Positions 23,535-64,000 of a stretch of 64,000 nt of DNA are shown here, in pieces (the stretch's first letter is position 1; the number at the start of each line of letters is the position of its first letter). The stretch lies in contig OZ024743.1 in assembly GCA_964016885.1 (NCBI GenBank), positions 171,616,001 to 171,680,000 of the forward strand, written 5' to 3'. Position numbers and translations under genes: made by a program. The DNA is from Eledone cirrhosa. Its lineage: Eukaryota. The notes beneath the pieces were generated by a model. It saw nothing but the letters and a program-made list of their open reading frames with translations, did no database searches and had not been told where the DNA came from.

Positions 23535-26500
23535 TTGATCGTTGAAGTGAATGGACGTACTATCGTGAACTCAAGTAAGTTTGTTATTTCTACGGTTTTG
23601 AATACGTTTGTTATTAATTTTTTGTATCAAAAGGGGCCTAAGACTTTAGTCTTTACCTTCAAGAAAGGACTCCCCATAATGTTGGGCATTTTGGCCCAGA
23701 TATTTTACATTTGTGTGTTTAAAAGAAATTATTTATCGAAAAAAAAAAATGCCGAAACACGCCCCACAACTTTTAGTTCGCTGTTGTGCGACAGCGAGTC
23801 AAACGTTGAGGCTAATAATGTTGCCCCTCCTGTAACAATTTTAAAATGTAACAACACGTCAGGCAATATCACCGACACCACCACCAACAACAACACCAAC
23901 AACAGTGAGTACATTAATATAAATAACAATGACATCACCAACAACAGCAGCAACAGCGACATTACCAAACGCAGTAAAAACACACTCGTGAACAAGAGTG
24001 ACAACAGCACCAGCAACAACGACAGTAGCGAAGATGACAACTGTAGTGATGACAACAACCCACCAACAACAGCGGCAACGACAAAAAAGACAACTATAAC
24101 AACAACAGTGACAATCACAACAACAACAAAAGTAGCAGTAACGACGAAACCACACAACAGACAGGAGCCGCCCAATGTACATCATTCGCGAAGGCTCCCA
24201 AAAAACGTTGAGCGTGTACGTGTCAGTGACACGGAGATGAGGCAAGCCAAGGTGTTGATAAAAAACCCCAGACACCGGGTAAGCCTCACCCACCCACCCG
24301 ATGTCATTAAAATCCGACGTTTGTGTACGGCATTCTATCATACAGTTGGACTGAAATCGTGCCAGGCGGAACGGGTGACCGACTCACAGGTCCAAAGGGC
24401 TATGCATACCGTCTGGGCACAGAAAATCTACATAGCCCGAGAATCGAAGTATGGCACAGTGGATGTTCTCTTCGCTACACCCGAAGAATCCATAGCACAC
24501 TCCATTACGCCACTCCGCAGTGACGAAATAGTGATAGTGCCCACATACTGCGGCCAGAGAGTCGCGAGGCTGATGGCGGTTGTCCTCGCTGACGTTGTTG
24601 AGTAGACAATAATCCTAGACATCATGCATATAAGACAGAAAAACTGGTCAGGCTAGGGGATGGAGCTAATCATCCAACCTGGGCGACGGGACCCATCTAC
24701 ACGTGACTATCGAAGGTAGGCGTCCTAATTGTCATCGGTGCGGGACAAGACGCACCTTAAGGCCTCTGCCTCAAACTCACCAAGACGGGCACGCGTTCCC
24801 CCTTCTGCCTACGCTGTGCCCCGCGACTGGAGTAGCCAAACCACCCGATGCCGCATAGGCAGAAAAACTACCAGCAGCAACGACAAAACACCATCTCCTC
24901 CATCACCAACAGTGACAACAAGACCAATGGAGAGCATGCCCCTTCCCGATATCGCTAAATCGGACAAGGAGTGTTATGACGCCGAATAGTGGAAAGCCGT
25001 CACAGCGAAAAAGAAAAGAAAGAACTCCCTACCTTTGCCCTACAAAAAAAAAAAGAGGAGCAAAAAAACAAAAAAAGGAAAAAAAAACAATGACCCCCCC
25101 CCCCCCCCCCCAATATCACCATCAATAGCCACACCATCACAATTAGCATCTACCCCATCGTCACCTCCAACAACACCACAGCAAACACAGAAAGCACCAA
25201 CATCTCAAAAGCAGACAGAATACACAGCTATAGACACAGACAACACAAAAGTTTTAAATTTCAGTCAACACCAGACCAACATCACAAAAACAAACTACAT
25301 ACAAACCACCAAAATTGCACCTTCCGCACACAAAATAATTGGAATCTCTCAAAAGAATTACACATCATTAAAGAAAAAGTTTCCCGTGGCAATTGGGGAT
25401 CTTTACTGACATTCTCGTGGAGAAATCCACCACTGGTCGGAGGGATGGATCACCCATGCCCTTCCTAAAAAAAGCTACAGGTAAAGTTTTATTTACTTTT
25501 CCTCTCTCACTTGTTTTCCTCCTATCTTAGCTTCTCTAAGGATAGGCAGTATAAATGCACATGGCCTGAAGTCATCTTGGAGCAGGGCCACCTGCTCAAC
25601 GATCTCAGGTCGCTAAACATAGATGTGATGGCCATCAGTGAGACCAGAATCTTCGATGCACGGGCATTCGTACCCATTTTCGGCAACTACGAGGTGAACA
25701 CATTTCCGAGCCGTCCCGGATTGGGTGGGGGGAGTTGCTGTGTTGTTCCGGAGAAGTCTGGATCTAGAAATACATGCCGTTTGCTTGGAACCAGAAGGTA
25801 AGTCGGTGGTGCTAGACGTCACCAGCGGAGGAAAACAAGCTTTCAGGCTATTGGCCATCTATGCCCCGACAGGGGCAGGATGTCCTGACTTCTTCCGGTG
25901 ACTGGAGACCTTTCTTGGAACGTCGCGCTCCTTAGTGTTAGTGAGCGACTGGAACGGTATCTTGGATGACGCTGGGACTGTGTGGGATTAGAGGATAGGG
26001 GAGGAGAGTATAAAGGCCTTGCAAACCTGCTCAGACGTTTTCAAATGTCTGACAGGTACCGGTTGGATTCCACGAATGTGCCAATGTGGACATGGACAAA
26101 CCGCATCGGGACATTCCGATCGTATCTAGATAGGGAAATAAATAGTTCTAGCATAGGATGTCCACAATTCAAGCAACAACTGCTCTGTAGTGAGAGTGAA
26201 CGGTCACCTTTCGGAACCGTTCAACATCATGCGCTCGGTCCGCCAAGGATGTCCCCTCTCGTCCTCGTTGTATGTATTGACTATCGAGCCATTACTACAC
26301 AAACAGATCTTGAGGGGCGTCCCGCGTTAACTGGGATGCGGGAGAACCGTGTGAGCATATGCCGACGACGTCAAAGTAGTGGTGTCGAGCGCCAAACACA
26401 TCGAGGCGATCGAGACTACTCTAAGAGAATACGAGGCGGTGACAGGAGCCATGATCAACCAGGAAAAGTCGTTGGCCCTGCGGCTCAGCTCCTGGAGAAG

Positions 26501-27947
26501 CAGGTCGATCCCGTTCAACAACGTCGTCGGTCGCTGGACGGACGGACCGGTTAAATTGCTAGGGGACTGGTTTAGTCCAGCCCTTCAGACGGACAAAACT
26601 GGGACGTGGTGACGAGCAGGGTGGCCTCTCTCACACACAAATGGGTCGAGAGGAAGCTATCCTTGAAAGGTCGGATGGAGTCTACTATCACCTGACAGTC
26701 GTGCCTTCTCCTAAGCCTCACCTGACTGCGCTGGAGCGTTTGCTCTTTCGATTTTGTGCATGGGACTCGTTCCGATGGTTAGGCGGTCCAACTGCTGTCA
26801 GTATCCGCTACGTGGAGGGCTGGACATGATGTGGCTGATGATGCGCAGATATGCGCTGAGGCTATGAGATCTTCAACCCTTTCTCGACGGTGAACAGGTG
26901 TGGTCACCGTTTGCCTGAGGCGCTTTTCCCCATCTCGTCTCCATAACGGAGCTGCATTCTTGGGTCAAGCGAAGACCGAGAGGAAGCGTTTGGAGACTGG
27001 AATGTCTTCAGGCGCTCACAGCCCTCGACTAATCGGGCGATGCGATCGGTGGAAACTCCACACTGGCGTTCTATAGAAGGTTAGAGGAGGGAAAGAACGA
27101 CGACGTCATAGGGGAGACACTGGGCGTCGACGAAAATCAACTAGCCAATCTCATCGGGAGTACTTTCGGGCCGGGGCCCATGGACAATTTCCAGCAATCT
27201 CTGACCTGGCAGTGCTATCGTGGAGGTTTGCCAGTTCGGTATAAACTCTACAGGCAAGGAAGTTCCGTTAGCCGAGCCTGTCCGAGATGCGGGCAGGGCA
27301 ACGAAACCATCCTACACGCACACATCCAGTGTCCGAGCATTGCTGACTTGTGGGCTTAAGTTGAACACCTGCTGTCGCGTGTAGGACGGATCCGGCTATC
27401 AGCTGAGTCCATCGTGAGGATTGCACCACCGCCTTCCTTTAGCCAGGAAGGGTAGGCTGTTTTTATCTGTCTGGTGGTCATGGCAAAAGAGGTCGTGTGA
27501 TGGACGCATTTGAAAGGGCTGAAGACGAGCACTTACTTCTTCGGTAGTGCACTGATTAACTTTTACAGGTTTCCCCTGAAAAGGAAATCAGAGTGGAGAG
27601 GGAAGTGCTCTCTTCCCAACAATTTGTTGAAAGGTAGGTGAGAGAGGCAAGCATGGCTTGAGTGAATGGGCCTACTATGAAAATCCGCCTGTAGATTGGA
27701 AGTGGAGAACTGGAAGAGTGCACTTTCCCTTGTGGTCAGAGTCACCGTGGCTTATTTAATGGGCTTTCTCCACGAGTCGCCCTCGGAAGTCTCCCCACAT
27801 ATTAGGGAATTTTACTTTGTTTCTTTTTTTGTCATTTCCTTTGTTCTTTCTTTACACGCAGAAATGCCCATTTGCACCGTCCTGTACCGTCCTGTGCTCT
27901 CCTTAATGATAAACTTTATGTCAATCCTTGTGGTTAATAAAGAAAGC
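23535..27947 (+). mobile_element. Tx1-clade LINE copy A (most decayed; ORF1 plus ORF2 with ~1.2-kb internal deletion)
   Basis: ORF1 homologous to copies C-F (KYGTVDVLFATPEE, PTYCGQR); APE remnant; jump from APE end to RT at ~26175; YADD; AATAAA then (ATT)n. Confidence 0.88.
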
Positions 27948-27959
27948 ATTATTATTATT

Positions 27960-30018
27960 TTTTCATTTATCTTGCTTGATGTTCATACGAGTTATCACAA
28001 AGCCACATCCAGTGACCTCAAGTGACAACATGTATCTTTAGGTGTTTAGACTTGTGATGTTTAGACTTGTGATGTACAGAATCTTCCTTAGTATATGGGC
28101 AGTTCCAATTAGAACTATCTTTTGTATTTCTTCTATAAGCGGGTTTCCTGGGATTAATCATTAGACCCGTTAGGTATCATTCCTAGAGCGCCTACAACCA
28201 CTGGTATTGTTTTAGTTCTCAATTTCCACGTTTTTCCAATCTCTATCTCCAGGTCTTTATACTTGTTCAATTTTCCAAATGTTTTTATAGATACATTCTT
28301 GTCTATTGGAACAGACATATCAATTAGCAGGCATATCCTCTTTTTAAAGTCCTATCAGGTCTATTTGTTTCTATTTTTCGGTCTGTTTGAGATGTGACCT
28401 TTTTCAAGTACGGGCGGTGGTTGATGCTCCCACCAATTCTTTTGATGGAGCAGGTCAAAATGCTTACACATTACCTAATGTATGTATTGTGTAGCTCTGT
28501 CGTGCCTGTTTAGGTATTCAGATGGGAGCTATATGACTGTACATTGAAATTATATGATCAATGGTCTCTGGTTGTTTTTTACATTACAGCATAATGGGTT
28601 GCATCCATTTTTTATGATGTTGGCTTGTTAACTTTTTGTTGGCAGACACTGATCTTGTGCTGATATAATCAGTCCTTCAGTCTCCGATTTCAGTTCAGAG
28701 AATGCCAACCACTGATGGGTTAAAGTTTTGTCAACATCAGGATTGTTAGCTCTTTCTGGTTATTTTCCATATAGAGGCTTTTCTTGCCATTTCTTAGCCA
28801 GTTTCTGTAGCAGTTTTCTTTGCAGTTACTTTTTACCTGCTTTGCTTTTTCTGTTTTTTTCATTTCAGCAGTAAAGGGAACTTCTGAAATGTGTAGTTCA
28901 TTACTGTATCTTTGTGCATCTTTTGTAATGGAGTATGATCATTTGATGCTTTCATATTTCAAAACAAGTTTGATCATGCAATCATAGATATGTAGATAAT
29001 CCAATTGTTGCAGTTTTCAAAGCAATATCTAACTGGATTAATCCACGTCCTCCTTCTTTCCTAGCTAGGGAGATATATTCTATCTGTATCTGCCTTAGGG
29101 TGATGCATTCTGTGCATGGTTAAGAATTTTCGAATTTTTGTATCGAGCCTACGGATATCTGTGCTTGACCATTTGATGACATTGAAACTGTAGGTTACTA
29201 CTGGTATGGCAAGCGTGTTTATGGCATCGATCCTATTCCTTGCATTCAATTCCGTTCTTAAGATTGCTCTTACTCTGCGGTAACATTCCTTCCTTATCCC
29301 TTCCCTCATTGTGAGTGCTTGATTCCGTCTCCTTCACAAACACCTAGATATTTGTAAATTGTTTTTTTATCAAGTTCTCTTACCACATTCCCTCGATCAA
29401 GATTAATGTCTGAACTTCTCAGGGGCTTTCCTCTGGTGAACGTTGTTTTTGCGCATTTATCTAGTCCAAACACCATTTTAATGTCATCACTGAATTGCTT
29501 CACAGTGGATAATAAACCTTGCAATTGCTCATCATTTTTTGCAAATAGTTTCAGGTCCTCCATGTAGAATAAGTGATTAATGGTTTTGTCATAGACTCTA
29601 TATCCATGTTTTGTTTCATTGAGCATTTTATTTAATGGTATAAGTGCGATGCAGAATCAAAGCGGTGATAAAGAGTCACCCTGAAAAATTCCACAATTAA
29701 TTTTAACTTCTCCAGCTTCCAGTGATTTTGTTTCACTATTCAAAAGGAGTGTCGTTTTCCATGTCTTCATACTGAATGACAAAAACCTCCTGACAACGGA
29801 AGATATTTTGAAAATCTCTAAACACTTTTCACTCCAACTGTGTGGCAAACTTTCAAATGCTTTTTTGTAAATTATCCACGCAATTGATAGATTTGTGTGT
29901 CTATTATGACAATCTTCCAGTATGATTTTGATCCTTGCAGCCATATGAGCCTCGTTTCCATCCTTTCTGCTCCTTGCGAAATAGATAATTTGTTATCTGG
30001 TGATCGTATGTATATTCA

Positions 30019-30019
<1 letters not shown>
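27960..30019 (-). mobile_element. R4/Dong-like RLE non-LTR retrotransposon, family 2, 5'-truncated and decayed
   Basis: EQKG, AWI.YKKAF, GIFQGDSLSPL, NHLFYMEDLKLF, YKYLG, MHHPKADTDRIYL, then RLE domain; (TAA)n on both sides. Confidence 0.9.

Positions 30020-30059
<40 letters not shown>
30020..30059 (+). repeat. (ATT)n junction microsatellite (also at ~27948, 33582, 38482, 39257, 45887, 51979, 57910, 63454)
   Basis: Same-polarity (ATT)n at nine element junctions. Confidence 0.97.
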
Positions 30060-30061
<2 letters not shown>

Positions 30062-33000
30062 CTTCGGCGGCTACGATGTGTACGCATCTCCCAGCCGTCC
30101 TGGATCGGGTGGAGGAGTTGCTGTGCTTTTTCGGAGAGGTTTGGATCTCGACATACGGGCCATCTTCCTGGACCCAGAGGGTAAGCTGGTGGTGCTGGAC
30201 GTGACCAGCGGAGACGGGCAAGCTTTCAGGCTAGTGGCCGTCTATGCCCCGACAGGAGCAGGGCGGCCTGATTTCTTCCGGCGTCTGGAGACCTTTCTTG
30301 GAACGTCCCGCTCTTTAGTGTTAGTGGGCGACTGGAACGGGATCTTAGATGCACGCTGGGACTGTGTGGGATTAGCGGATTGGGGTGGAGGGTGCAAGAG
30401 CCTCACCAACCTGCTCAGGCGTTTTGAACTGTCTGACAGGTACCGATTGGATTTCCCGAATGTGCTAATGTGAACTTGGACAAACCGCATAGGGTCATCC
30501 AGATCATATCTAGATAGAGTATTTTGTAGGGAAATAGATAGGTCTAGCATAGGCTGTCCACAATTCAAGATAGTCAGCTACACGGACCACAAATTCGTGA
30601 TCTGTGTGCTTGACTTAGATAGGCTTCATAGATGAGGACCCGGCTACTGGAAACTAAACGCGTCCTTACCAGCGCGCAAGGCCTACAGAGACCGGATTAG
30701 CGAACTAGTTAAGCGGGCGTTGACGGGGGCCATCGTCAACAACAAGTGGTGGTTTGCTCTGAAAAGAGCGATTAGAATAGAATCGATTAGGTTTAGTAAG
30801 GCTTTAGCAATAGAGAAAAATAGAGCAGAGGGAGAACTAGTTAGAAAATTAGACGAGGCGCTTAGCAAAGGCATTGCGACCGACGTGCTTGCGGCGAAAT
30901 TGGGCCTTGACAAATTTTTCAATGCAAAGCACGAAGGCTGCGTTGTCAGAGCAAGGGTGCGTGCTCTCAGACACGAGGGGACGAAAGCCGTTCAATGGGC
31001 CCGAGTGGCGGAGGCGCGTCGTGGCAACAAAGCCACGATCCGGTCTTTGGTGGACCACGACGGGCGCATGCTACTCGATCCCGGGCAAATGTGTGAAGCT
31101 TTTCAGCGACACTTCGCTCAGCTGTTCGGGGGCAGCGGTGGGCCGGGTAGAGGGATGGACTTTAGTGTCTACCTCGACGGACTGCCGCGGCTCTCGGCCA
31201 CTGAGGCGAAGTGTTGCGAAAAGCCGATAACAGCCGCTGAAGTAAGGGAGGCAATGACTGGCTGCACAAGGGGTAAATCGCCTGGTTTGGATGGTCTGCC
31301 CTATGAACTTTACGTACAGATGCCAGACTTGTTCGGAGGCCTCTTGGCGGACGTCTACTGCAACTGGCAACAGAACGGGAGAATTCCCAGTTCTGTGAGC
31401 CGAGGAGCGGTGGCACTGCTGAGAAAGGATCCGAACAAGAGGGATAACATAGATAATTTCCGGCACATAACTCTGCTAAACACAGAGTTCAAGTTTTTGG
31501 CCAAGGTGCTAGCAAAGAGGTTGGCGCTTGTCGTTGGTGGTCTGGTGGGAGAGGCGCAGACATGCGCCATTCCCGACAGATCCATCCACGACAACCTCCA
31601 CCTCATGCGATACATCATAGAGAGGGTAGCTAATGAACCTGGCACGGGTGGGTCCTTGATCAATTTAGATCAGTCGAAAGCTTTCGATAGGGTCGACCAT
31701 CGTTACCTAGCGGCAGTCCTGAGGGCGGCTGGCTTTGGGCTCGTCTTCAGAGGCTGGATCGCTGCCATGCACAGCGACATCTGCTCTGTGGTGAGAGTGA
31801 ACGGTCACCTGTCGGAACCGTTCAACATCATGCGCTCGGTCCACCAAGGATGTCCCCTCTCGTCCCTCTTGTACGTATTGACTCTCGAGCCATTACTGCA
31901 CAAACTGGAGACGTTGAGGGGAGTCCCGCGCGAACTAGGATGCGGAAGATCCGTGTCAGCATATGCGGACGATGTCACCGTAGTGGTGTCGAACGCCAAA
32001 CACATCGAGGCGATCGGCACTACACTAAGAGAATACGAAGCGGTGACAAGAGCAATGATCAACCAGGAAAAGTCAGTGGGCCTGCAGCTCGGCACCTGGA
32101 GAGGCAGGTCCATGCCGTCCAACAGCGTCGTCGGGCGCTGGACGGACGGACCGATTAAATTGCTAGGGGTCTGGTTCGGTCCGGACCTCCAGACGGACAA
32201 AAACTGGGACGAGGTGACGAGCAGGGTGGCTTCTCTCACCCAGAAATAGGCGGAGAGGAAGCTATCCCTGAAAGGTCGAGCGGAGGTGGCTAACGCGTAC
32301 ATCGCGTCTGTCATCTGCTACCGCCTGACCGTCGTACCTTGTCCTAAGCCTCGCCTGACTGCGCTGGAGCGTTTGCTCTTTCGCTTTTTGTGGAAGGGAC
32401 GTGCTCCGATGGTCAGGCGGTCCATCTGTTGTCAACACCCGCTACGTGGAGGGCTGGGCATGCCGTGGCTGATGATGCGCAGGCACGCGCTCAGGCTACG
32501 ACATCTCCACCTCTTCCTCGACGGTGATCAGGTGTGGTCGCCGTTTGCTAGACACGTGTTTCCCCAGCTCGTTTCCTTGACGGAGCTGCAGTCCTGGGTC
32601 AAGCGAAGACCGAGAGGGAGAGCTTGGAGACTGGAATGTCTTCAGGCGCTCACAGCCCTCGACCAATCGGGCAATGTGATCGGTGGAAACTCCACCTCGG
32701 CGTTCTATAGAGGATTAGTGGAGGGGAAGAGCGACGACGTACTTGGGGAAACTCTAGGTGTCGACGAAAATCAACTAGCCAATCTCTTCGGAAGAACTTT
32801 CGGGCCGGGGCCTATGGACAACTTCCAGAAATCTCTGGCCTGGCAGTGCTACCGAGGAGCCTTGCCAGTTCGGGATAAACTCTACAGGCATGGAAGTGCC
32901 GTCAGCCGGGCATGTCCGAGATGCGCGCAGGGCGACGAAACCGTCCTGCACGCACTCGTCCAGTGTCCGAAAATTGCTGACTTGTGGGTTTATGTCGAAC

Positions 33001-33580
33001 ACCTGCTGTCGCGTTTAGGACGGATCCGGCTATCATCTGAGTCCATCGTGAGGATTTCCCCGCCCTCCTCCTTTAGCCGGGAAGGGCAGGCAGTTTTTAT
33101 CTGTCTGGTGGCCATGGCGAAAGAGATAGTATGGTGGACACGTTTGAAAGGGCTGAAGACGAGCACTTACCTCTTCGGTGATGCTCTGATTGACTTTTTC
33201 AAATTTCATTTGAAAAGGAAAATCAGAGTAGAGAGGGAAGTGCTCTCTTCCCAGCATTTTGTTGAAAGATGGGTGAGAGAAGCAAGAATGGCCCGAGTGA
33301 ATGGGCCTACTCTGAGTATATATCTGTAAATTAAAGGTGGAAAACTGGGAGAGGGCACTTGCCTTGGTGGTCAGGGTCATTGTGGCTTTTTACTGGGCTT
33401 TCTCCACAAATGTCCCTCCGAAGTCTCCCCCCTATTGGGGAAATTTTGATTGTTATTTTTTTTGTTACATCCTCTGTTTTTGTTTTTTACTCGCAGAAAT
33501 GCCCATTTGTACCGTCCTGCATTGTCCTGCACTGTCCTTAATGTCTACTTTATGTAAACCCTTGTGGTTAATAAAGAAAT
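30060..33580 (+). mobile_element. Tx1-clade LINE copy B, 5'-truncated within APE; ORF2 broken by three point stops
   Basis: VYAP, GDWN, SYLDR, TDH (APE); KSPGLDG, LDQSKAFDRV, QGCPLS, YADD (RT); CPRC..ET..HAL..C zinc finger; stops at ~30471, ~30633, 32247. Confidence 0.93.
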
Positions 33581-33682
33581 CATTATTATTATTATTGTTA
33601 TTGTTATTCCTTGAATCTCAGTCATTGATGTTGGTTAACTGGAAAGTCCGTTGGATTGAATATCAAGCCACTACCTGCAGCC

Positions 33683-36600: not shown

Positions 36601-37077
36601 ATCTCTGTTCCAGGTATTATTTATCTCAGTATTCAGATCATTGTCTGCTTCGGGTGGTTCCTCCGTTCTCAGGACCTCCTCACCTTCATTTCCCGCTGGC
36701 TCGCTTGTCTGGCATACTACACCCGCCATCTCCAAGCCATTCTCTCTGCTCAGTTCCTCCAGTTCCAGCTCGCTTATCCACCCATTAGTTCTTATTACCC
36801 GAGCCTGCCCGGCCAATTTTTGTTCATCTAATTTAAATAAACCAATCTCGTTCCAGATGTTATGCATCCGTCTCCTGTAGCCCCTCTCCTTGGGGTTACT
36901 TTTCAGGTAGCATTGCATAACAGTTCTATTCAATTCTTTCGTCCAGTTGGTTCTGGCCCCTTTCCTTCTTCTTCTTCCTCCAACATCAGCAGTATTTGGT
37001 TGACAGTCAGGTTCCTGCTGCTGAGCCAGGGGGCACCTGTTGGGTGAGAGTCTGTCACATGACGTTCTAGTCTCCAT
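33683..37077 (-). CDS. RT-RLE polyprotein (~1130 aa), one 2-bp frameshift at ~34235
   Basis: NWKSPGPDG, YRPITCL, EQKGCR, DYRKAFD, GIFQGDSLSPLLF, LFMDD, YKYLG; CRIC..ET..HIVSEC, RHD, RPDLVV, IVDVACP, EKINRY. (GA)6 here versus (GA)5 in the 39.9-kb copy. Confidence 0.92.
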
Positions 37078-38296: not shown

Positions 38297-38480
38297 TTAT
38301 AACAATATATTTTGGGTCCGAATTTTTTTGGGGCTCAAGCCGGGTGCTTTACGTAGCATTTGTACTAAGAGTTGTTATTTCACAAATGATTTAAATATGT
38401 TAAAAATTCAAAACTTACGGGAGCGATTTCATGGCCTCCGTCACCTCGTGCGTCTTCTTCCCATCTTCTTCTTCTTCTTC

Positions 38481-38526
<46 letters not shown>

Positions 38527-45931: not shown

Positions 45932-45950
45932 TTTTTTTTTTTTTTATTAT

Positions 45951-51900: not shown

Positions 51901-51976
51901 GATCGTACCGTCCTGTACCGTCCTGTGCCGTCTGTAATGTTTTTCTTGATGTCAGCCCTTGTGGCCAATAAAGAAA

Positions 51977-51977
<1 letters not shown>
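45951..51977 (+). mobile_element. Tx1-clade LINE copy D, full length, second subfamily, decayed
   Basis: Distinct 5' UTR and ORF1 N-terminus; knuckle CFRCGSKTHLRAFC; ORF2 ~48284-51698 with stops and frameshifts; (ATT)n on both sides. Confidence 0.93.
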
Positions 51978-52017
<40 letters not shown>

Positions 52018-55000
52018 GTTGGTGAAGCCACGCTTCTTATCGCCTCCAGTCTTTTTCAACGTTTTACCTCTTTTTCAACCGTTCTAAACCTTTTATTCAA
52101 GTTTTAAATTTGATAAAAGTTTAGAAGAAGTGACCCACCTAATACAGGGGTTCACTAGTAAATAATACGGCACCCCTTTCCGGGGTGTCGTATTCGTATT
52201 TGTGTAAAAAAAATTTTTTTTTTTAAATTTCAACATGGATAACACAAAGAGAGAGAGCGCTGTCAGACAACACAGAGATAGGGAGACTTTATCAGCATGT
52301 CAACAAGACAGCGTTCCAGCGGAGGTAAATATAAACGAAAATATTACAAACGAAAAAAAGATTGTTACAGATTTAAAATTAACAAATATTTCTAACACAA
52401 ACAACACCAACAATAACACCAACAACATCACCAAAAATAACAGCGGTAAAGTCGAGAACGACAATAACAAAAATAACAGCGGTAAGGTCGAGAACGACAA
52501 TAAAAATGACAATAACAACAGCCACAACAACAATAATAGTAGGATTAGTATCAACAAAAACAACAATAATAACAACAGCCACAATAACAGTAACAGCAGC
52601 AACAGTATCAACGAAAACAACACCAACAACTGTACCAGCGAAAAGAACAACAATGACACCGATACCAGTAATAGCGACCTCAGCACCACCAGTAAGACCA
52701 GTAGCGGCAGCAATAGTGGTGCTGCTGAAAAAGGGACCACTTCTTTTGCAGGTGTCGCCCGAAATATCGAGACAGTGTTAGTCACAGAGGAGGAGATGGC
52801 AGTCGCAAGGGCCATGGTGACAAGAAGCGCAAATAGAGTTTCCCTGAAACCTCCACCCGATTTTTTCAAGGACCAGCAGCTACGGACGGTGACTTACCGC
52901 ACCGTAAGCAAAATCTGACATCGAGTGGAGAGAGCCAGGGAGGCTCAAATCCAAAAGGCTTTGGGGTGCGTCTGGGCACGCAAAACCCACATCACCCGAA
53001 GCAGAAAGTACGCACCGTAGACGTACTTTTCGCCACCCCCCAGGAATCAAAGTCTCACTCTTTAGAAACCCTAAAGAGTGAGGAGATAATCTTGGTGCCC
53101 TCTTACTGCGGGCAGAAAATTGTGAGGGTCAAAGTAACCCAAGTCCCACCCGACGTGCCCATACTTTGGCTGGCCGCGTCTGTACTTGCTGGAATTGAGA
53201 ACAGGGCGACCATGCTGCAAGTAGAACAAATAGGGAGAGAGAACTTGTCAGGTATAAGCATGCAAATGCTTATACAAACTGACCAGGAATGTATCGAGGC
53301 TATCCCCGATATCATAGACATCGAGGAAGGACTCCAACTCCCTATAAGTGTAGAAGGAAGACGGCCAAAATGTTATCTCTGTGGGTCGAAGGGTCACCTC
53401 AGGGCCTTTTGCCCGCAGAAGACAGGGAAGAGGGCCCCTCTCCTTCCAATACCTGGTCCGCTGCTACCAAGAGCAGGACAGGCAACAAACGAATAAGCCC
53501 CTTCCACGGTGAGTAGGAGGGCAACGTCTGTAGCACTCGTACCAAGGCCACGGATAACTAAAGCAGCATCATCAGTAGCGGTAACACCAATAGCTACATT
53601 TGAAGTAGCTACACCAGCAACAAAATTGCCGAAGATTGCTCCACTACCACCACCTCCCAGACGCCACAGAATCCGACATGGAGATTGAAGCGGGAGTGAA
53701 GTGGCAAACAGTCTGCCACAAAAAAGAAAAAAGAAAAAAACCCTTAGATTCATCCTCCAAAAGCGAAGGCATACAAAGAGGGGTAAAGGCAGCAAGGAAA
53801 CTTGCAGCAACACCACCACCATCACCACCACAAACACCAACAACGCAAACACAACAAGACACACACACCAAACAGCAACAAGAAGAAAACAGCAACAAAA
53901 TCACCCCTCCCCACAAAAAGTACACAGCCATAAACATGGCAAAAAAAGAACTCATACAATATATAAAGCAGCACACAGACATCACAGAAAAAAACTATTA
54001 CACCCCACCAACACCAAGAACTCTCTTGACAAACATAAGAATCATCGAAATCTCAATAGAACAGTACAAACCTTTAAAACAAAAATTCCCCAACGCAGTT
54101 GGAGACTTCAGAGAGACGGTTACCAACAGGATATACACTGACATCCTCTTGGAAACACCCATGACCAACGAAAGGGACGGTTCTACTGTCCCTTCACCAC
54201 ACGAACAAGGTAAGTGACCCTTTCTCACTTGCCCCGTTTCTCATCCAACATGGCTGTACTCAGAATAGGCAGTATAAATGCACGTGGCCTGGGGTCATCT
54301 TGGAAGCAAGGTCACCTGCTCAATGACCTCAGGTCACTAAACATAGATGTGGTGGCCATCAGTGAAACCAGAATCTCCGAGGCACGGGCCTTCGCAACGA
54401 TCTTCGGTGGCTACGATGTATACGCATCTCCCAGCCGTCCAGGATCGGGGGGAGGGTTTGCCGTCCTTTTTCGGAGAGGCTTGGATCTCGCGATACGGGC
54501 CATTTTCCTGGAACCAGAAGGTAAGTCGGTGGTGCTGGACATGACCGGCACCGAAGGCAATCCTTTCAGGCTAGTAGCCGTCTACGCCCCAACAGGGGCA
54601 GGACGGCCCGATTTCTTCAAACGTCTAGAGACCTTTCTTGGAACGTCCCGCTCTTTAGTGTTTGTGGGCGACTGGAACGGTATCTTGGATGCACGCTGGG
54701 ATCGTGTGAGGCTAATGAATAGGGGAGGAGGGTGAAGAGCCTCACCAACCTGCTCAAACGTTTTGAACTGTCTGACAGGTATCGACTGGATCACCCGAAT
54801 GTGCCAATGTGGACATAGACAAACCGCATCGGGTCATCCAGATCGTATCTCGATAGGGTTTTCTGCAGAGAACTAGATAAGGCTAGTATAAGTTGTCCAC
54901 AATTTTAAAATAGTCGACTACACAGACCACAAATTTGTGATCTCTGAGAACGAAATAGACAGACTTCATAGACAAGGGCCTGGTTACTGGAAGCTGAACA

Positions 55001-57909
55001 CGTCTTTCCCGGCGCGCAAAGCCTACAGAGACCGGATTAGCGTATTAGTTAAGCGGGCGTTGACGGGAGCGGTCGTCAACAACAGGTGGTGGTTCGCCCT
55101 GAAAAGGGCAATTAAAGTAGAGTCGATTAGGTTTAGCAAAGGAGTAGTGATAGAGGAATATAGAGTAGAGGGAGAGCTAGTCAGAAAGATAGAAGAGGCG
55201 TTTAGGATAGGCATCGCAACCGACGTGCTTGCGGCGAGATTGGCACTCGACCAATTCTTCAACACATAACACGAAGGCTGCGTTGTCAGAGCTAGAGCGC
55301 GTGCTCTGAAACACGAGGGGACGAAAGCCGTCCAATTGGCCCGGGTGGCAGAGGCGCGACGTGGCAACAAAGCCACAATTCGGTCTTTGTCTGACCTAAA
55401 TGGGTGCGTGATGCTCGAACCCGAGCAGATGTGTGAAGCTTTTCAGCACCACTTTGCTGAACTGTTCGGGAGCGGCGGCGGCACGGATCGGGGCATGGAC
55501 TTTAGTGCATACCTTGATGGACTGCCTCGGCTCTCGACAACCACAGCACAGTGTTACGAAAAGCCAATACCAGCCGGTGAAATACGGGAAGCGATGGCTA
55601 ACTGCACAAGGGGTAAATCGCCAGGTTTAGATGGTCTGCCCTACGAGCTTTATGCATTTATGCCAGACTTGTTCGGTGACCTCTTGGCAGACGTCTTCTG
55701 CAACTGGCAGCAGAACGGGAGCATTCCCAGTTTTGTGAGCCGGGGAGCAGTGGCGCTGCTGAGAAAAGACCCGAACAAGGGGGATGTTATCGATAATTTC
55801 AGGCCCATAACCCTGCTAAACGCAGAGTTAGAGATTTTGGCCAAGGTGTTAGCAACGAGGTTGGCGCTTGTCGTCAAGGGTCTGGTGGGAGAGGCGCAGA
55901 TATGCGCCATTCCGGACAGATCCATACACGACAACCTCCACCTCATGCGATACATCATAGAGAGGGTGGTTAAGGAACCTGGCAAGGGTGGGGCCCTGAT
56001 CAACTTGGATCAATCCAAAACATTCGATAGGTTCGACAATCGGTACCTGGCGGCGGTCCTCGAGGTAGCCGGTTTCGGGCCCGTTTTCAGGGGTTGGATC
56101 GAGAGCAATGTACAGTGACATCTGCTCAGTTGTGAGGGTGAACGGTCACCTGCCGCAGCCGTTCAGCATCATGCACTCAGTCCGCCAGGTTTGTCCCCTC
56201 TCGTCCCTCTTGTACGTATTGGCTCTCGAGCCGTTACTGCACAAACTGGGAGCGATGAGAGGCGTCCCACGCGAACTAGGATGCGGGAAATCCGAGTCGG
56301 CTTACGCTGACGACGTCACCGTGACGTTGTCGAGCACCAGACACGTCCAGCAGCAGACAAGTCGGTGGGCTTGCAGTTCGGCACCTGGAGCGGCAAGACC
56401 ATGCCGTCCGACAGCGTCGTGGGGGCGTTGGACGGACGGACCCGTTAAATTTCTCGGGGTCTGGTTCGGACCGGACCTCCAGATGGAGAAAAACTGGAAC
56501 GAGGTGACGAGTAGGGTGGCCTCCCTCACCCAGAAATGGGCTGAGAGGAAGCTGTCTCTGAAAGGCCTGGCGGAAGTGGCGAATGCGTACATCGCATCCG
56601 TCATCTGCTACCGCCTCACCGTCGTCCCTTGCTCCAGCCCAACTCTCACCAAAATGGAGCGCCTCCTCTTCCGCTTTTTGTGGAAGGGACGCGCTCCCAT
56701 GGTCAGACGATCCATCTCCTGTCACCACCCGTTGCGTGGAGGACTGGGCATGCCATGGCTGATGATGCGCAAACATGCGCTGAGGCTGCGACATCTCTGA
56801 TGCTTCCTTGATGGTGAACGGGTGTGGTCGTCGTTCCCCAGGCACGTTTTCCCACAGCTCGTCTCCTTGACGGAGCTGCAGTCCTGGGTCAGAAAAAGAC
56901 CGAGGGATAGCGCTTGGAAACTGGAATGTCTCCAGGCGCTCACTGCCCTCTCCCAGTTGGGCACTAGTATCGGTGGAACATCCACCTCGGCGTTCTATAG
57001 AGGACTAGTGGAGGGGAAGAACGACGACATTCTCGGAGAGATCTTGGGCGTCGAAGAAGATCAGCTGTCTGCTCTCTTCCGGAGAACTTTCAGCCCGGGG
57101 CCTATGGATAACTTCCAAAAATCCCTGGCCTGGCAGTGCTACCGGCGAGCGCTGTCGGTTCGAGATAAACTCTACAGGCACGGAAGTGCCGTCAGCCGGG
57201 CCTGTCCGAGATGCGCGCAGAGCGACGAAACCGTTGTACACGCACTCGTTCAGTGCCCGAGCATTGCTGACTTGTGGAGCTATGTCAAACAGTTGCTGTA
57301 ACGTGTGGCACTGATCCGGTTGTCGACTGAGTCCATTGTGTAGATGGTCTCGCCGTCTTCCTTCGAGGAGGAAGGGCAGGCAGTTTTCATCTGCCTGGTG
57401 GCCATGGCGAAAGAGATTGTGTCGTGGACAATGTTAAAAGGGTTATAGACAAACACTTTCCTCTTCGGCGAATCCCTAATTAACTTTTTCAAGTTTCACT
57501 TGAAGAGGAAAATCAGGGTGGAGATGCAAGTGCTGCTTTCTAGCAAGTTTGTTGAAAGGTGGGTGAATGTAGCGAGAATGGTCCGAGTGAACGGGACCAC
57601 TCTGAATATACGTCTGTAGTTTGAGAGATGGAAAAATTGAGAGAGGGCGCTTGCCCTGGTTGTCAGGGTGGCCGTGGTCTTTTGTGTGGTTTTCGCCACG
57701 AGTAACCCTCGGAGGTTTCCCCCACTATTGGGGAATTATTCATTGTTTCAATTTTCATTTTTATTGTTTATATATATAAATGTTTTATGTCCTTTTTTTC
57801 TTTTCTTATATAAATAATAAAAATATTTACACGCACAAAACCCACATCGTACCGTCCTGTGCCGTCTGTAATGTTTTTCTTGATGTCAGCCCTTGTGGCC
57901 AATAAAGAA
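52018..57909 (+). mobile_element. Tx1-clade LINE copy E, full length, D-like ORF2/3' UTR with a different 5' end
   Basis: ORF1 52235-54217 (Asn-rich N-terminus, CYLCGSKGHLRAFC); ORF2 ~54250-57619 disrupted; (ATT)n on both sides. Confidence 0.93.
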
Positions 57910-57924
57910 ATTATTATTATTATT

Positions 57925-60900
57925 GGCGACCTACGTAGTAAATCGTATCATCGTGAGCTCCGCAAAGGTTTGTTATTTCCGTTTGTTAAAAATTGCCATT
58001 TATGGAAAATTTTTATTGTTAACTATATATAAGCGCACATACATTGTTTTCCGAAAAGGACACCCAAAAAGATTGGGGCCTTGTGCCCCAAATTTTAACT
58101 TTTATTATTATCAAAAAATTTATTTGAAAAAAAATGGCTAATTCACCTCTGCACCAAGCAGCTGAAAGCCTTCCTCACAAATTAACACCTCACAACGACA
58201 CCACCATTGTAAATGTTACTACGTTTGCCAACACTAAAACAAATATTAGCAGTAGCAATATTTTAAATTTGTCTCAGGCAGACATTCATTTCCCGCCATT
58301 ACCAATGACTGCAGGTGTTAAAGCCTCCACCACCACCACCACCGCGACAACCACCACCCGACCACCACCGCGACAACAGAAACAAAAGGAAAAAATAAAT
58401 CAACTCGTGATGTCGAAATAATTTCAACCAAAATGGACTCTTCCACTTCCACACCGAACACCAGAGGAGGCTAGAAAACACTCCATGGCCACATTAAGAA
58501 GTGACGACTTCACACTCGTCCCAAGCTATTGTGGTCAGAGACTCGTAAAGATCAGGGTGACCCACGTTCCACCGGCCATCGAAATTCCCTGGCTAATAGC
58601 GGCCGTCCTCGCCGGCATCGAAGCCAACACAAAGATAATAGTAATAGCAAAAGAAAAGCACGAGAACTGGTCCGGATCTGGGATGGAGCTCCTGATCCAA
58701 ACGGACCCCAAAAAAATTGAGGAGATCCCAGAGGTAATAGACCTCACTGACAGCAGCCACCTCACCGTAATTGTCGAGGGCAGAAGGCCTAGGTGTGACG
58801 TTTGTGGTGAAGGAACCCACCTAAGGGCTTTCTGCCCTCAGGCTAAAAGGTTGAGGCCACCTCTCCTACCCACCCCAGTGACTCAACCATCAACACCACC
58901 AGTAGCAGAGATGGCAGCAACAACTGTAGCAGCAACAACAGGAGCAACTATAACAGCAACAACCCCAGCAACAGTAGCAAAACCAACATCACCACAACCA
59001 GCAAAACCAACACCACCACCACCCAACGCTTCAGAACTAGCACCAGCGCCTACACCATCCACCACGCCACAACCAAAACTAACGCCTGTGGAGGATTTTC
59101 CACTCCCCGGCCTATCACAACTGGAGACAGATTGTGACGACGAGGAGTGGGAAACGGTATCTGGGAAAAAAGAAAAAAAGAAACCAAAAAAGAAAAAATT
59201 CTCTTCCTTCCCCCTCCAAAACCAAAATACAGAGGGAAACAACTAAATTAACAATCAAAAAAGTTAGGACAGATATGCCACCATCCACACCAGCATCACC
59301 GACCCCATCAACCCAAACACCAACACCATCACCATCATTAACCCCAACACCACCATCACCTACACCACAAAAGTCACCAAAATGCGAAACAGAAACAAAC
59401 CCACAACAAACGCAAACAAAACAAAACAACCAAAACGATACACATTACACAGCATTAAATTTGGGTGGATTGGCAGTATCGGTAGAGGGTCGGACGCCAT
59501 GCTTTCCAGCATAGTTACGTCCCTTTACGATCTGAGTTCAAATCCCGCCGAGGTTGACTTTGCCTTTCATCCTTACGGGGTCGATAAAATAAAGTACCAG
59601 TAATGCACTGGGTAATTGCTGGCCTTGTGCCTAAAGTAGAAACAATTAAATTTGAACAACAACCAATTATTACACTACATCCAACACAACACCAGCATCA
59701 CAGAAAAAGACTACACAACAACCCCAAAATTCACACCACCTCCACACATACAAATCACTCGCATCACACAGAAAACGTACATGACACTAAAACAAAAATT
59801 CCCCAAAGACATCGGAGACTTTCGACAAGCACTCTCCAGGAGGATTTATAAGGACATCCTTCCTGAGGAGGCCACAAGCAGTGAAAAGGATGGAAAAACC
59901 GTCCTTCCTCTACGAGAAGTAAGGTAAGTGGTCTTTCCCATCTTTTCCACTCCTTTTCAACATGACCTCACTCAGAATAGGCAGCATAAATGCGCGTGGC
60001 TTGGGGTCGTCATGGAAGCAGTGCCACCTGCTCAACGACCTCAGGTCACTAAACATAGATGTAATGGCCATCAGCGAGACCAGAATCTCCGAAGCACGGG
60101 CCTTCGCACCGATCTTCGGCGGCTACGATGTGTACGCATCTCCCAGCCGTCCGGGATCGGGGGGAGGAGTTGCTGTGCTTTTTCGGAGAGGTTTGGATCT
60201 TGCCATACGGGCCAACTTCCTGGACCCAGAAGGTAAGTTGGTGGTGCTGGACGTGACCAGCGGAGACGGGCAAGCTTTCAGGTTAGTGGCCGTCTATGCC
60301 CCGACAGAAGCAGGGCGGCCTGATTTCTTCCGGCGTCAGGAGACCTTTTTGGAACGTCCCGCTCTTTAGTGTTAAAGGGGCGACTGGAACGGGATCTTAG
60401 ATGCATGCTGGGATTGTGTGGGATTAGTGGATAGGGGAGGAGGGTGCAAGAGTCTCACCAACCTGCCGATTGGATTTCCCGAATGTACCAATGTGGACTT
60501 GGACAAATCGCATAGGGTCATCCAGATCATATCTAGATAGTATATTTTGTAGGGAAATAGATAGGTCTAGCATAGGCTGTCCTTACCAGAGCGCAAGGCC
60601 TACAGAGACCGGATTAGCGAACTAGTTAAGCGGGCGTTGACGGGGGCCATCGTCAACAACAAGTGGTGATTTGCTCTGAAAAAAGCAATTATAATACAGT
60701 CCATTAGCTTTAGTAAGGCTTTAGCAATAGAGAAAAATAGAGCAGAGGGAGAATTAGTTAGAAAATTAGACGAGGCGCTTTGCAAAGGCATCGTGACCGA
60801 CGTACTTGCGGCGAAATTGGCCCTTGAACAATTCTTCAATGCAAAGCACGAAGGCTGCGTTGTCAGAGCTAGGGTGCGTGTTCTCAGATACGAGGGGACG

Positions 60901-63452
60901 AAAGCCGCTCAATGGGCCCGAGTGGCGGAGGCGCGTCGTGGCAACAAAGCCACGATCCGGTTTTTGGTGGACCACGACGGGCGCATGCTACTCGATCCCG
61001 GGCAAATGTGTGAATCTTTGCAGCGACACTTCGCGACACTTCGCTCAACTGTTCGACTTTAGAGTCTACCTCGACGGACTGCTGCGGCTCTCGGCCACTG
61101 ATGCGGAGTGTTGCGAAAAGCCGATGACAGCCGCTGAAGTACGGGAGGCAATGACTGACTGCACGAGGGGTAAATCGCCTGGTTTGGATGGTCTGCCCTA
61201 TGAACTTTACGTACAGATGTCAGACTTGTTCGGAGGCCTCTTGGCGGACGTCTACTGCAACTGGCAACAGAACCGGAGAATTCCCAGTTCTGTGAGCCGA
61301 GGAGCGGTGGCACTGCTGAGAAAGGATCCGAATAAGGGGGATAACATAGATAATTTTCGGCCCATAACTCTGCTAAACACAGAGTTCAAGATTTTGGCCA
61401 AGGTGCTAGCAAAGAGGTTGGCGCTTGTCGTTGGTGGTCTTGTGGGAGAGGCGCAGACATGCGCCATTCCCGACAGATCCATCCACGACAACCTCCACCT
61501 CATGCGATACATCGTAGAGAGGGTAGCTAGGGAACCTGGCACGGGTGGGTCTTTGATAAATTTAGATCAGTCGAAAGCCTTCAATAGGGTCGACCATCGT
61601 TACCTAGCGGCTGGCTTTGGGCCCGTCTTCAGAGGCTGGATCGCTGCCATGCACAGCGACATCTGCTCTGTGGTGAGAGTGAACGGTCACCTTTCGGAAC
61701 CGTTCAACATCATGCGGTCGGTCCGCCAAGGATGTCCCCTCTCGTCCCTCTTGTACGTATTGACTCTCGAACCATTACTGCACAAACTAGAGACGTTGAG
61801 GGGGGTCCCGCGCGAACTAGGATGCGGAAGATCCGTGTCAGCATATGCGGACTATGTCACCGTAGTGGTGTCGAACGCCAAACACATCGAGGCGATCGGC
61901 ACTACACTAAGAGAATACGAAGCGGTGACAGGAGCAATGATCAACCAGGAAAAGTCAGTGGGCCTGCAGCTCGGCACCTGGAGAGGCAGGTCCATGCCGT
62001 CCAACAGCGTCGTCGGGCGCTGGACGGACGGACCGATTAAATTGCTAGGGGTCTGGTTCGGTCCGGACCTCCAGACGGACAAAAACTGGGACGAGGTGAC
62101 GAGCAGGGTGGCTTCTCTCACCCAGAAATGGGCAGAGAGGAACCTATCCCTGAAAGGTCGAGCGGAGGTGGCTAACGAGTACATCGCGTCCGTCATCTAC
62201 TACCGCCTGACCGTCGTACCTTGTCCTAAGCCCCGCCTGACTGCGCGGAGCGTTTGCTCTTTCGCTTTTTGTGGAAGGGACGCGCTCCGATGGTCAGGCG
62301 GTCCATCCGCTGTCAACACCCGCTACGTGGAAGGCTGGGCATGCCGTGGCTGATGATGCGCAGACACGCGCTCAGGCTACGACATCTCCACCTCTTCCTC
62401 GACGGTGATCAGGTGTGGTCGCCGTTTGCTAGACACGTCTTTCCCCAGCTCGTCTCCTTGACGCAGCTGCTGTCCTGGGTCAAGCGAAGACCGAGAGGGA
62501 GAGCTTGGAGACTGGAATGTCTTCAGGCACTCACAGCCCTCGACCAATCGGGCAATGTGATCGGTGGAAACTCCACCTTGGCGTTCTATAGAGGATTAGT
62601 GGAGGGGAAGAGCGACGACGTACTTGGAGAAACTCTAGGCGTCGACGAAAATCAACTAGCCAATCTTTTCGGAAGGACTTTCGGGCCGGGGCCTATGGAC
62701 AACTTCCAGAAATCCCTGGCCTGGCAGTGCTACCGAGGAGCTTTGCCAGTTCGGGATAAACTCTACAGGCATGGAAGTGCCGTCAGACGGGCATGTCCTA
62801 GATGCGCGCAGGGCGACGAAACCGTCCTGCACGCATTCGTCCAGTGTCCGAGCATTGCTGACTTGTGGGTTTATGTCGAACACCTACTGTCACGTGTAGG
62901 ACGGATCCGGCTATCAGCTGAGTCCATCGTGAGGATTGCCCCGCCGCCTTCCTTTAGTCGGGAAGGGCAGGCAGTTTTTATCTGTCTGGTGGCCATGGCG
63001 AAAGAGATAGTATGGTGGACACGTTTGAAAGGGCTGAAGACGTGCACTTACCTCTTCGGTGATGCCCTAATTAACTTTTTCAAATTTCATTTGAAAAGGA
63101 AAATCAGGGTAGAGAGTGAAGTGCTCTCTTCCCAGCATTTTGTTGAAAGATGGGTGAGAGAAGCATGTATGGCCCGAGTGAATGGACCTACTCTGAGTAT
63201 GTGTCTGTAAATTGAAGGTGGAAAACTGGGAGAGGGCACTTGCCCTAGTGGTCAGGGTCACTGTGGTCTTTTAATGGGCTTTCTCCACAAATATCCCTCG
63301 GAAGTCTCCACCCTATTGGAGAATTTTTCTTTGTTATTTTATTACATCCTCTGTTTTTTTACACGCAGAAATGCCCATTTGTACCGTCCTGTATTGTCCT
63401 GTACTGTCCTTAATGTCTACTTTATGTAAACCCTTGTGGTTAATAAAGAAAA

Positions 63453-63453
<1 letters not shown>
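57925..63453 (+). mobile_element. Tx1-clade LINE copy F, same subfamily as B/C, intact 5' end, internal deletions and SINE insertion
   Basis: 5' UTR matches C plus ~45 extra bases; ~400-bp ORF1 deletion near 58450; RT motif mutated to YADY; (ATT)n on both sides. Confidence 0.93.
59464..59644 (+). mobile_element. SINE family 2 inserted in Tx1 copy F ORF1 with a 10-bp TSD
   Basis: ATTAAATTTG duplicated at 59454-59463 and 59645-59654; empty site visible in copy C at ~41916. Confidence 0.93.
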
Positions 63454-63489
<36 letters not shown>

Positions 63490-64000
63490 TTCATTATTTT
63501 TATGTTATTTCGTTTAACTTAGTTCTGTTTCTCTATTGCCGGGTTCAGGCCTTAAACCGGGGGCAATAGATGTTTTCATTGTAGACAGAATAGATATTTT
63601 TATCATCTGAGAATGTGTGCCGATCTTCTGTAACTCATATTTGCTGATATTGGGTGCAATTTTGGGAATTTCAGTATTAATCATAATGTTCCAATTACCA
63701 CAGAGATAGTTTTTGTCGTCATCCTCCACATGCCGTTGATCTCTATTTCCAGGTCTTTGTAGTTTGAAAGTTTTTCCATTGTTTTTATTAATGTATTCTT
63801 GTCATCTAGTACGGAAATATTTATAAGGTTACTTATCCGATCTATTATTTTTAAGGTGATATCTGCTCTGTTGGCAGCGATTTCTCAGTCGGTTATCACA
63901 GGCATATCCCACAAGATGGATAAGTTGCCCTTTTCCATGACTGTTTTTGGTTGATGTTCATACCATTTGTCAAAGGATTTGATGTCATGTGAGCGGCGTA
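63490..64000 (-). mobile_element. Third R4/Dong-like RLE family, decayed 3' end (continues beyond the window)
   Basis: Minus-strand translation DKWYEHQPKTVME..SILWDMPVITD*EIAANRADI..EKLSNYKDLEIEI..MW; 3' end abuts (TAA)n. Confidence 0.85.

Follow-up and report, generated by a model that had tools for sequence, protein, structure and literature searches.

In Bombyx telomeres, the LINE families TRAS and SART build arrays in which they face opposite ways within a single tandem repeat (PMC7265360, PMC10088271), and the TRAS1 endonuclease nicks one of the two strands of its own repeat (PMC7265360). Some Tx1 families target microsatellites, namely (TC)n for Kibi, (TTC)n for Koshi and (TTCC)n/(TTTC)n in crocodilians (PMC4494074), and Tx1-1_ACar is a telomeric Tx1 (PMC10088271). 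Dong elements of the R4 clade (Bombyx Dong, DongAg, the snail DongBg and an ostracod Dong) are reported to insert usually into (TAA)n in insects, molluscs and cnidarians (PMC3812793, PMC7998251), and Dong-R4 families have recently been active in Octopus vulgaris (PMC13282606). U2 snRNA genes are a target on which Keno (Tx1, APE) and Utopia (RLE) have converged (PMC4640811). These descriptions, like the citations below, follow excerpts of the papers.

The window analyzed here, 64,000 nucleotides of Eledone cirrhosa DNA, contains six Tx1-like (APE) elements on the plus strand and five Dong/R4-like (RLE) elements on the minus strand, with (ATT)n or (TTA)n at 9 of 10 junctions, as described in a sequence-only reading of the same DNA (Table 1; all coordinates are in window numbering, and some features run beyond 64000). 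That reading let the train end at 64000. However, D5 reaches 65377 and is followed by three more elements; the whole train comprises 14 LINEs over 54 kb, with the repeat absent from 2 of 13 junctions. The left flank of T1 is a decayed run of GTT/GGT/GCT units and not ATT, at a position where T1 relatives have (ATT)n in 21 of 29 cases. The claim that no host DNA separates the elements was borne out: D2 has a 5′ UTR of 1.35 kb, including a 330-bp tandem duplication, and this fills the space from its ORF to D3. A separate minus-strand Tx1 fragment at 37110–38462 was ruled out, as this stretch is the D2 5′ UTR and recurs at 97–99% identity in other copies. The D2 ORF (37110–34192) is frameshifted at a (GA)n run ahead of its CCHC/RLE end. 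At the D4/T3 junction (~40069) there is no repeat, and the T3 5′ end is short by ~44 bp.

Table 1. Features of the host intron and the LINE train
Feature	Position	Strand	Remarks
Host exon, M1 aminopeptidase N (GAMEN + HEIAH motifs)	19552–19706	-	PF01433 E 1.4e-18; tblastn exon map
Decayed trinucleotide tract (ATT/GCT/GTT/GGT units), left of T1	23491–23536	+	From sequence; not clean ATT
T1, old full-length Tx1-like LINE	23537–27947	+	Internal deletion, many stops; 85% to best sampled relative
(ATT)4, tail to tail	27948–27959	+	
D1, 5′-truncated Dong-like, family D1/D3	27960–30019	-	
(TTA)13 between two truncated 5′ ends	30020–30058	+	Tail of neither neighbour possible
T2, young 5′-truncated Tx1-like	30060–33581	+	RVT_1 + zf-RVT; 98.7% to a relative
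(ATT)5	33582–33596	+	
D2, full-length Dong-like	33597–38462	-	
(TCT)6 + (TTA)15	38464–38525	+	
D3, 5′-truncated Dong-like	38526–39256	-	98.7% to a relative
(TTA)7	39257–39277	+	
D4, youngest copy, 3′ fragment of D2 family	39278–40069	-	Open CCHC + PD..D RLE frame; 99.9% to a relative
T3, near full-length Tx1-like	40070–45886	+	ORF1, APE, RT, zf-RVT
(ATT)15 plus T run	45887–45945	+	
T4, full-length decayed Tx1-like	45946–51978	+	Second subfamily
(ATT)13	51979–52017	+	
T5, full-length Tx1-like	52018–57909	+	ORF1 with CCHC-type motif (PF00098 E 0.0033, under cut-off)
(ATT)5	57910–57924	+	
T6, Tx1-like, both ends present	57925–63453	+	Two internal deletions
SINE, 185 bp, nested in T6	59464–59648	+	
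(ATT)12	63454–63489	+	
D5, old 5′-truncated Dong-like	63490–64000, on to 65377	-	Third RLE family
Mirror-image block: T7 -, (AAT)20, D6 +, (AAT)8, T8 -	65377 to ~77717		

The train sits in one intron of what is probably an octopus gene, for an M1 aminopeptidase N. The intron upstream of the exon in Table 1 extends from 19707 to 78686, with GT..AG ends and equal phase, and the train occupies 92% of it. Its upstream exon was missed by motif scans and was located by tblastn with homologues; the same searches did not locate the exons encoding aminopeptidase N residues 258–348. An Rfam scan of the window gave no matches. The intron lies centrally in a contig of 379 Mb, and three further arrays were found within the gene, where both polarities occur. 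Control of polarity by the host gene strand was ruled out because both array polarities are present in the gene and the genome strand counts are even. The earlier description of a strand-polarized train applied to the single tract and not to the locus: just outside the window polarity flips, and the reversed block of the last three elements indicates that it is set per repeat tract.

That the train was stitched together through (ATT)n during assembly is hardly credible. The tracts measure only 12–60 bp and the copies differ by 5–30%, there are no N gaps from 23.5 to 78 kb, and aminopeptidase N exons stand on either side in the right order and phase, in agreement with the intronic site proposed earlier. 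The same junction types were also seen at dozens of loci, in one random 10-kb window and in the three other arrays. Compatible with a mis-assembly are the public contigs that contain the flank (three sets, one sample), which cannot span the train, and the 99% identity of D2 and D4 over the 813 bp they have in common. No RNA set was listed among the public runs holding the flank.

Flank and orientation were then tabulated genome-wide and proved non-random, as the sequence-only reading had supposed. In the T6 family, ATTATTATT stood immediately before 1366 of 1489 exact 5′ ends, in one phase, and the 1489 ends were evenly divided between the strands (753/736). Exact Dong 3′ ends numbered 3757, with even strands in this exact-pattern count; each total covers one subfamily. 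Further ends were sampled with the train's own copies left out, and the samples are mostly young because mostly best-matching copies were taken. In three Tx1 samples, ATT was present at 29/29, 29/29 and 21/29 (T1 family) of the 5′ ends, and Tx1 3′ ends had it in 29/29. Dong 5′ ends were preceded by (TAA)n in 28/29, and the repeat was present at 30/30 and 20/29 (D5 family) of the 3′ ends; the old families T1 and D5 were less strict. The chance of (ATT)≥4 ending ≤15 bp upstream was 5e-4 per position (399,400 random bases), and the repeat at the junctions is therefore not a chance occurrence. Read on the sense strand, it was ATT at both ends of Tx1-like elements and TAA at both ends of Dong-like elements. 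Full-length Tx1 copies joined the repeat at their 5′ ends in a single phase (TTATT|G, 29/29). In hand-picked single copies both flanks held a tract (Tx1 13/14, Dong 6/6), which agrees with the proposed renewal of repeat flanks on both sides. The upstream tract was kept in 42/47 5′-truncated Dong copies and in 6/10 truncated Tx1 copies, the remaining 4/10 having partial or converted tracts only. Its retention in the truncated Dong copies indicates that the tract is the target and not merely a tail.

Across the tract from 204 sampled ends, a LINE neighbour was recognized in 89 cases, a SINE in 31 and nothing in 84. Same-clade neighbours ran in the same direction (45/45) and cross-clade neighbours were opposed (44/44), so that all 89 LINE neighbours followed the earlier prediction of one target common to both clades with fixed opposite orientations. 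On the C1 position lists, pairs ≤10 kb apart were opposed in 8/8 cross-clade cases and agreed in 24/25 same-clade cases; at 10–20 kb the orientation rule was gone, with 3 of 9 further pairs opposed. The next intron holds a sister Tx1 lineage whose target is (CTAT)n and whose endonuclease hairpin loop differs. It is most improbable that targeting plays no part, the repeat being carried on both RNA ends or the elements surviving passively in repeat-rich DNA. This would leave unexplained how unrelated clades abut in fixed orientation (89/89); moreover, the truncated copies lost the RNA 5′ end and kept the upstream tract, and the nearby CTAT lineage was never on ATT. Tract length speaks for this reading without targeting, with medians of 11–19 units beside young families versus a longest background tract of 7 units (n = 76). 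Since the flanking tracts far exceed the background, some of the repeat may arise at insertion.

The clade assignments were examined by protein and structure comparison. A T3-family copy with an intact ORF2 of 1152 aa gave Exo_endo_phos, RVT_1 and zf-RVT above cut-offs, and its endonuclease aligned with L1-type endonuclease structures, with the catalytic residues present. The ORF1 of intact copies measured 504–715 aa, and the sub-cut-off PF00098 match of T5 was absent from two intact ORF1s. In a quick RT tree built without curated Tx1 or L1 references, the Tx1-like elements grouped with two elements from metagenomes which, like Keno, adjoin U2 snRNA sequence (SH-aLRT 96). One weak match carries the name Transposon TX1, and target-specific insertion, a Tx1 trait, was present in the T6-family count given above. 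Metagenome relatives matched at 25–53% only, and an (ATT)n flank was found in 0 of 13 inspected (of 31). For the Dong-like elements, a single ORF of 1141 aa was intact in 4 of 6 full-length copies fetched. The RT, the CCHC knuckle and the PD..D(x)K restriction-like endonuclease motifs were read directly in it, and R2 was nearest to its RT among solved structures. The N-terminal model was helical (pLDDT 84), and many of its top matches were Myb/SANT at Z 5–6 only. Among the 120 homologues listed for the Dong-like elements, none was a named reference element. For the Dong/R4 N-terminus, the excerpt of PMC7998251 gives a Myb/SANT-like domain and no zinc fingers. The (TAA)n target at 5′, 3′ and truncated ends is as counted above. 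An Atlas look-up returned no clade name for the elements.

The RLE elements fell into three families (D2/D4, D1/D3 and D5) with 41–47% amino-acid identity between them, consistent with the minimum of three that had been claimed. Identity to relatives was 82–85% for the outer copies and 95–99.9% for most inner ones, and the earlier view of several families of different ages was thus upheld. D1, an inner copy with 85% identity to its relatives at the 3′ end, is an exception. The arrays contain copies of differing age, with the most diverged ones outermost.

Both clades occupy (ATT)n/(AAT)n in fixed opposite orientations across this genome, and we consider it probable that this is because their proteins nick and prime on opposite strands. 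With target-primed reverse transcription the primer strands would differ, AAT for the Tx1 APE domain and ATT for the Dong protein; both Tx1 junctions lie at ATT|ATT, a TpA step. Every insertion would turn one tract into two, so that later copies of either clade could enter between earlier ones, and the array would expand from inside with its outer tracts decaying. Two arrays of opposite polarity were likely joined at 65377 via a 6-nt microhomology. Opposite-strand nicking would not be the only route to this orientation, which RNA-tail pairing to a nicked strand also predicts. In that alternative, which we regard as unlikely, nicking on either strand would be loose and pairing of the RNA 3′ end (AUU in Tx1, UAA in Dong) would set the orientation. 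All 29 sampled Tx1 3′ ends passed from AATAAA plus 6 nt directly into (ATT)n without poly(A), from which the Tx1 RNA likely ends in read-through AUU. AAC/AAT units recurred at Dong 3′ ends, and annealing of SART1 RNA to its target has been proposed (PMC7265360). However, the single-phase Tx1 5′ junction fits a defined cut more easily, and in studied APE elements the endonuclease is the main determinant, with a domain swap cited (PMC4494074). The CTAT lineage differs in both tail and endonuclease and thus does not separate RNA pairing from endonuclease choice. With intact copies in both clades and this sister lineage in the same gene, the question is directly testable.

Beyond priming on opposite strands, the two clades may farm their common target. 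We hold this only tentatively: insertion would split and lengthen (ATT)n into fresh long targets, leading to intron and genome growth in octopods, and in the same joint proposal a SINE would supply short seed tracts. The proposal leans on flanking tracts longer than the sampled background and on an intron that is 92% array.

Compared with the known systems as far as the excerpts describe them, the Dong-like elements share with Dong the single ORF, the RT, the C-terminal RLE and the (TAA)n target, and this half is itself not new. Unlike Dong, they share tracts with an APE LINE and build long mixed arrays; a literature search (Repbase outside its scope) found no report of mixed arrays of this sort at interstitial sites. 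Like the microsatellite Tx1 families, the Tx1-like LINEs are two-ORF APE elements in a simple repeat with fixed orientation; here, however, the repeat is (ATT)n, the host is an invertebrate, and a (CTAT)n sister lineage is nested. In the same search no report of the ATT target was found; it appears to be undescribed for Tx1-like LINEs, and (ATT)n joins the list of their targets. Keno and Utopia also bring a Tx1 and an RLE element to one target, but that target is a low-copy gene and their identical 3′ flanks imply the same direction, whereas the two clades here take opposite strands of a microsatellite that is renewable. On a genome scale, APE and RLE elements would use a single non-telomeric, renewable target from its two opposite strands. 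This also offers a mechanism for transposable element hotspots and for the very long introns of octopods. TRAS and SART likewise oppose each other in one repeat, as the cross-clade neighbours do here; both are R1-clade APE elements at telomeres, whereas here an APE and an RLE element share thousands of interstitial tracts, including introns. The system works like TRAS/SART and is not a member of it, one partner being RLE and the site intronic in mid-contig.

Eleven adjoining LINEs were traced from T1 to the end of the window by self-alignment, Pfam and tblastn, in a genome of 3.0 Gb. The claim of the sequence-only reading that they abut, with the Tx1-like copies (T1-T6) on the plus strand and the Dong/R4-like copies (D1-D5) on the minus strand, was confirmed. 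The nine (ATT)n junctions it had claimed were present as (ATT/TTA)n tracts of 4-15 units each, with a single polarity throughout; the D4/T3 junction had no repeat, and ~44 bp were absent from T3. APE, RT and zf-RVT were present in the T elements; in the D elements the RT was accompanied by a CCHC knuckle and an endonuclease motif of the PD..D type. The clade names are putative, being based on how the domains are arranged and on a tree that contained no curated references. At least three RLE families had been proposed, and three were seen among the D copies, with 41-47% protein identity between them. Element-adjoining tracts were sometimes turned into GTT, GGT, CAA or CTT units with the register kept, which may reflect decay or microsatellite turnover.

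Features of the locus (window numbering; positions beyond 64,000 lie past the window end)
Feature	Position	Strand	Detail
Degenerate (AT)n arrays	within 1-6455		several kb
N gap	3409-3608		200 bases
Open frame	7248-7985		245 aa; matches GIY-YIG weakly (E 0.015); may be part of a Penelope-like element
SINE copies	12457-12654; 21828-22256; 59464-59648
Host exons	78807-78687; 19706-19552	-	GT..AG, one phase
Left flank of T1	23491-23536		decayed GTT/GGT run
LINEs in the window	23537-window end	as listed	T1+, D1-, T2+, D2-, D3-, D4-, T3+, T4+, T5+, T6+, D5-
D2 5' UTR	37110-38462
Tandem duplication, Dong 5' UTR	37651-38303		330 bp; common to other family copies
End of D5, polarity flip	65377
Beyond the adjoining Tx1-like copy	to ~77717	as listed	(AAT)20, Dong (+), (AAT)8, final Tx1 (-)
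(CTAT)n train	91.6-108 kb		~4 Tx1-like copies, ~70% to ATT lineages
Mixed arrays, other aminopeptidase N introns	165-174 kb; 191-208 kb; 218-226 kb

Flanks and orientation were then tabulated genome-wide, as the reading had proposed. An exact 24-mer of the T6-family 5' end occurred 1489 times (753 forward, 736 reverse) and was directly preceded by ATTATTATT in 1366 of these; an exact 28-mer of the D2-family 3' end occurred 3757 times. Flanks were tallied at 204 sampled ends, with copies from the window itself excluded. The D2 3' set comprised the first 30 matches in positional order; the other six sets were the best 30 of 40 listed matches and therefore lean to young copies. On the sense strand, ATT flanked the 5' ends of the T6 (29/29), T5 (29/29) and old T1 (21/29) families and the T6 3' ends (29/29), and TAA flanked the D2 5' (28/29) and 3' (30/30) ends. 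Old D5 3' ends had TAA in 20 of 29 cases (remainder: 1 ATT, 1 both, 7 none), and flanks were looser in old families than in young. The background per position was 5e-4 in 40 random 10-kb regions, and a mixed array was met in 1 of 40 such regions. Across the tract at the sampled ends, same-clade neighbours ran in the same direction (45/45) and cross-clade neighbours were opposed (44/44). All 89 LINE neighbours faced as predicted; beyond the tract of the remaining ends lay a SINE in 31 and nothing recognised in 84. On another contig, C1, the comparison took the 100 positions listed first for each of the two patterns. Within 10 kb, cross-clade pairs were opposed in 8 of 8 (local shifts gave an expectation of 2.9 pairs; P 0.026) and same-clade pairs agreed in 24 of 25. 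At 10-20 kb only 3 of 9 further pairs were opposed; polarity therefore belongs to each tract.

Targeted insertion is well supported as a real, genome-wide property. After removal of 11 internal deletions, the upstream tract was kept by 42 of 47 5'-truncated Dong copies and 6 of 10 Tx1 copies, although some of these junctions came via a neighbour and are hence not independent. At D1/T2, 13 repeat units separated two truncated 5' ends. Among 20 full-length copies picked by hand, the repeat lay on both flanks in 13 of 14 Tx1 and 6 of 6 Dong copies, and both clades have copies with intact ORFs. A sister Tx1 lineage in the neighbouring intron, which served as a control, had its own train on (CTAT)n. 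Both trees placed this lineage within the ATT lineages, its exact position varying between them, which suggests a target switch; in its two readable copies the endonuclease hairpin loop was unlike that of the ATT lineages. Tx1 subfamilies with ~95% identical ORF2 had unlike 5' UTR and ORF1 (702-715 aa vs 504 aa), and the 5' end of the T2 family was T4-like; this looks like module swapping. In metagenome contigs, distant relatives stopped right at U2 snRNA sequence, as Keno elements do.

In target-primed reverse transcription the primer strand is the complement of the RNA, and Tx1 would therefore prime from the AAT strand of the repeat and Dong from the ATT strand. The 5' junctions of full-length Tx1 copies shared a single phase (TTATT|G in 29/29), and Dong 5' junctions were ragged, the commonest form accounting for 15 of 29. 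The strand is probably picked by endonuclease or DNA-binding choice. Selection through pairing of the RNA tail with the repeat is less likely, though favoured by the Tx1 3' ends, which have no poly(A) and pass from AATAAA into the repeat.

Past the window, D5 adjoined the 3' end of a minus-strand Tx1-like copy with no repeat between, one of two repeat-less junctions in the whole train. The complete train comprised 14 elements over ~54 kb in two mirror-image blocks, both keeping the same orientation rule relative to their own repeat. The strand polarity described for the train thus stood within each tract and block but not as a locus-wide property. At the flip, the final six bases of the Tx1 copy were identical to the Dong sequence there; 16 D5-family loci were fetched, and of the 4 spanning the flip point 3 had the same six bases and 1 had five. 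The flip likely arose by a microhomology join of two arrays. The apparently intronic setting was borne out, since exons of an M1 aminopeptidase N gene flank the train, which occupies ~92% of a 58,980-bp intron. For the first coding exon, identity was 75% with the aminopeptidase N of Octopus bimaculoides and 71% with a protein from Argonauta, making an octopod host probable. Other introns of the gene contained three additional mixed Tx1/Dong arrays, with both polarities occurring.

The different ages claimed for the copies were recovered when age was measured as the highest identity that the 3' 700 bases of a copy showed to any sampled relative. T1, D1, D5 and T8 reached 82-85%, T7 (like T8, past the window end) had no long match, and the other nine elements reached 94.6-99.9%. 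Old copies lay at the block edges (D1 one step inward) and the outer tracts were decayed, a layout that fits growth from inside. Tracts flanking young families had medians of 11-19 units, and the longest of 76 background tracts had 7. Where a SINE tail was followed by a young Tx1, 6-17 units were counted (6 cases) vs ~2 at 35 random SINE ends. The greater lengths could mean that tracts grow on insertion, or that the elements pick long tracts and exhaust them. The SINE made up 1.8% of random sequence, its terminal ~25 nt were similar to the Tx1 3' end, and it had Tx1 polarity at 30 of 31 junctions. ATT repeats lay upstream of 10 of 26 random SINE copies (~6% expected). The SINE is possibly mobilised by these Tx1 elements. 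It was also often seen to seed Tx1 insertions.

Among known systems, the Dong elements of insects, molluscs and cnidarians use (TAA)n as their target (PMC3812793, PMC7998251), and the targets described for Tx1 families include (TC)n, (TTC)n, (TTCC)n and (TTTC)n (PMC4494074) as well as telomeric repeats (PMC10088271). In octopus surveys Dong-R4 elements and L1-Tx1 elements are reported to be abundant or active and hotspots are described; the portions consulted contained no target analysis (PMC13282606, PMC9115989, PMC8967140, PMC10294476, PMC4758252). Within the literature passages covered, no ATT-targeting Tx1 was found, though the PMC4494074 supplements, Repbase Reports or Kojima and Fujiwara 2004 may record one; nor was a mixed Tx1/Dong array, of which a prior record is possible. 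Every ingredient has precedent, and the ATT target of a Tx1-like lineage and its opposed interstitial sharing with Dong appear new. Close parallels are TRAS and SART, which enter one repeat from opposite directions (PMC7265360, PMC10088271), and Keno/Utopia, in which Tx1 and RLE elements converge on U2 (PMC4640811).
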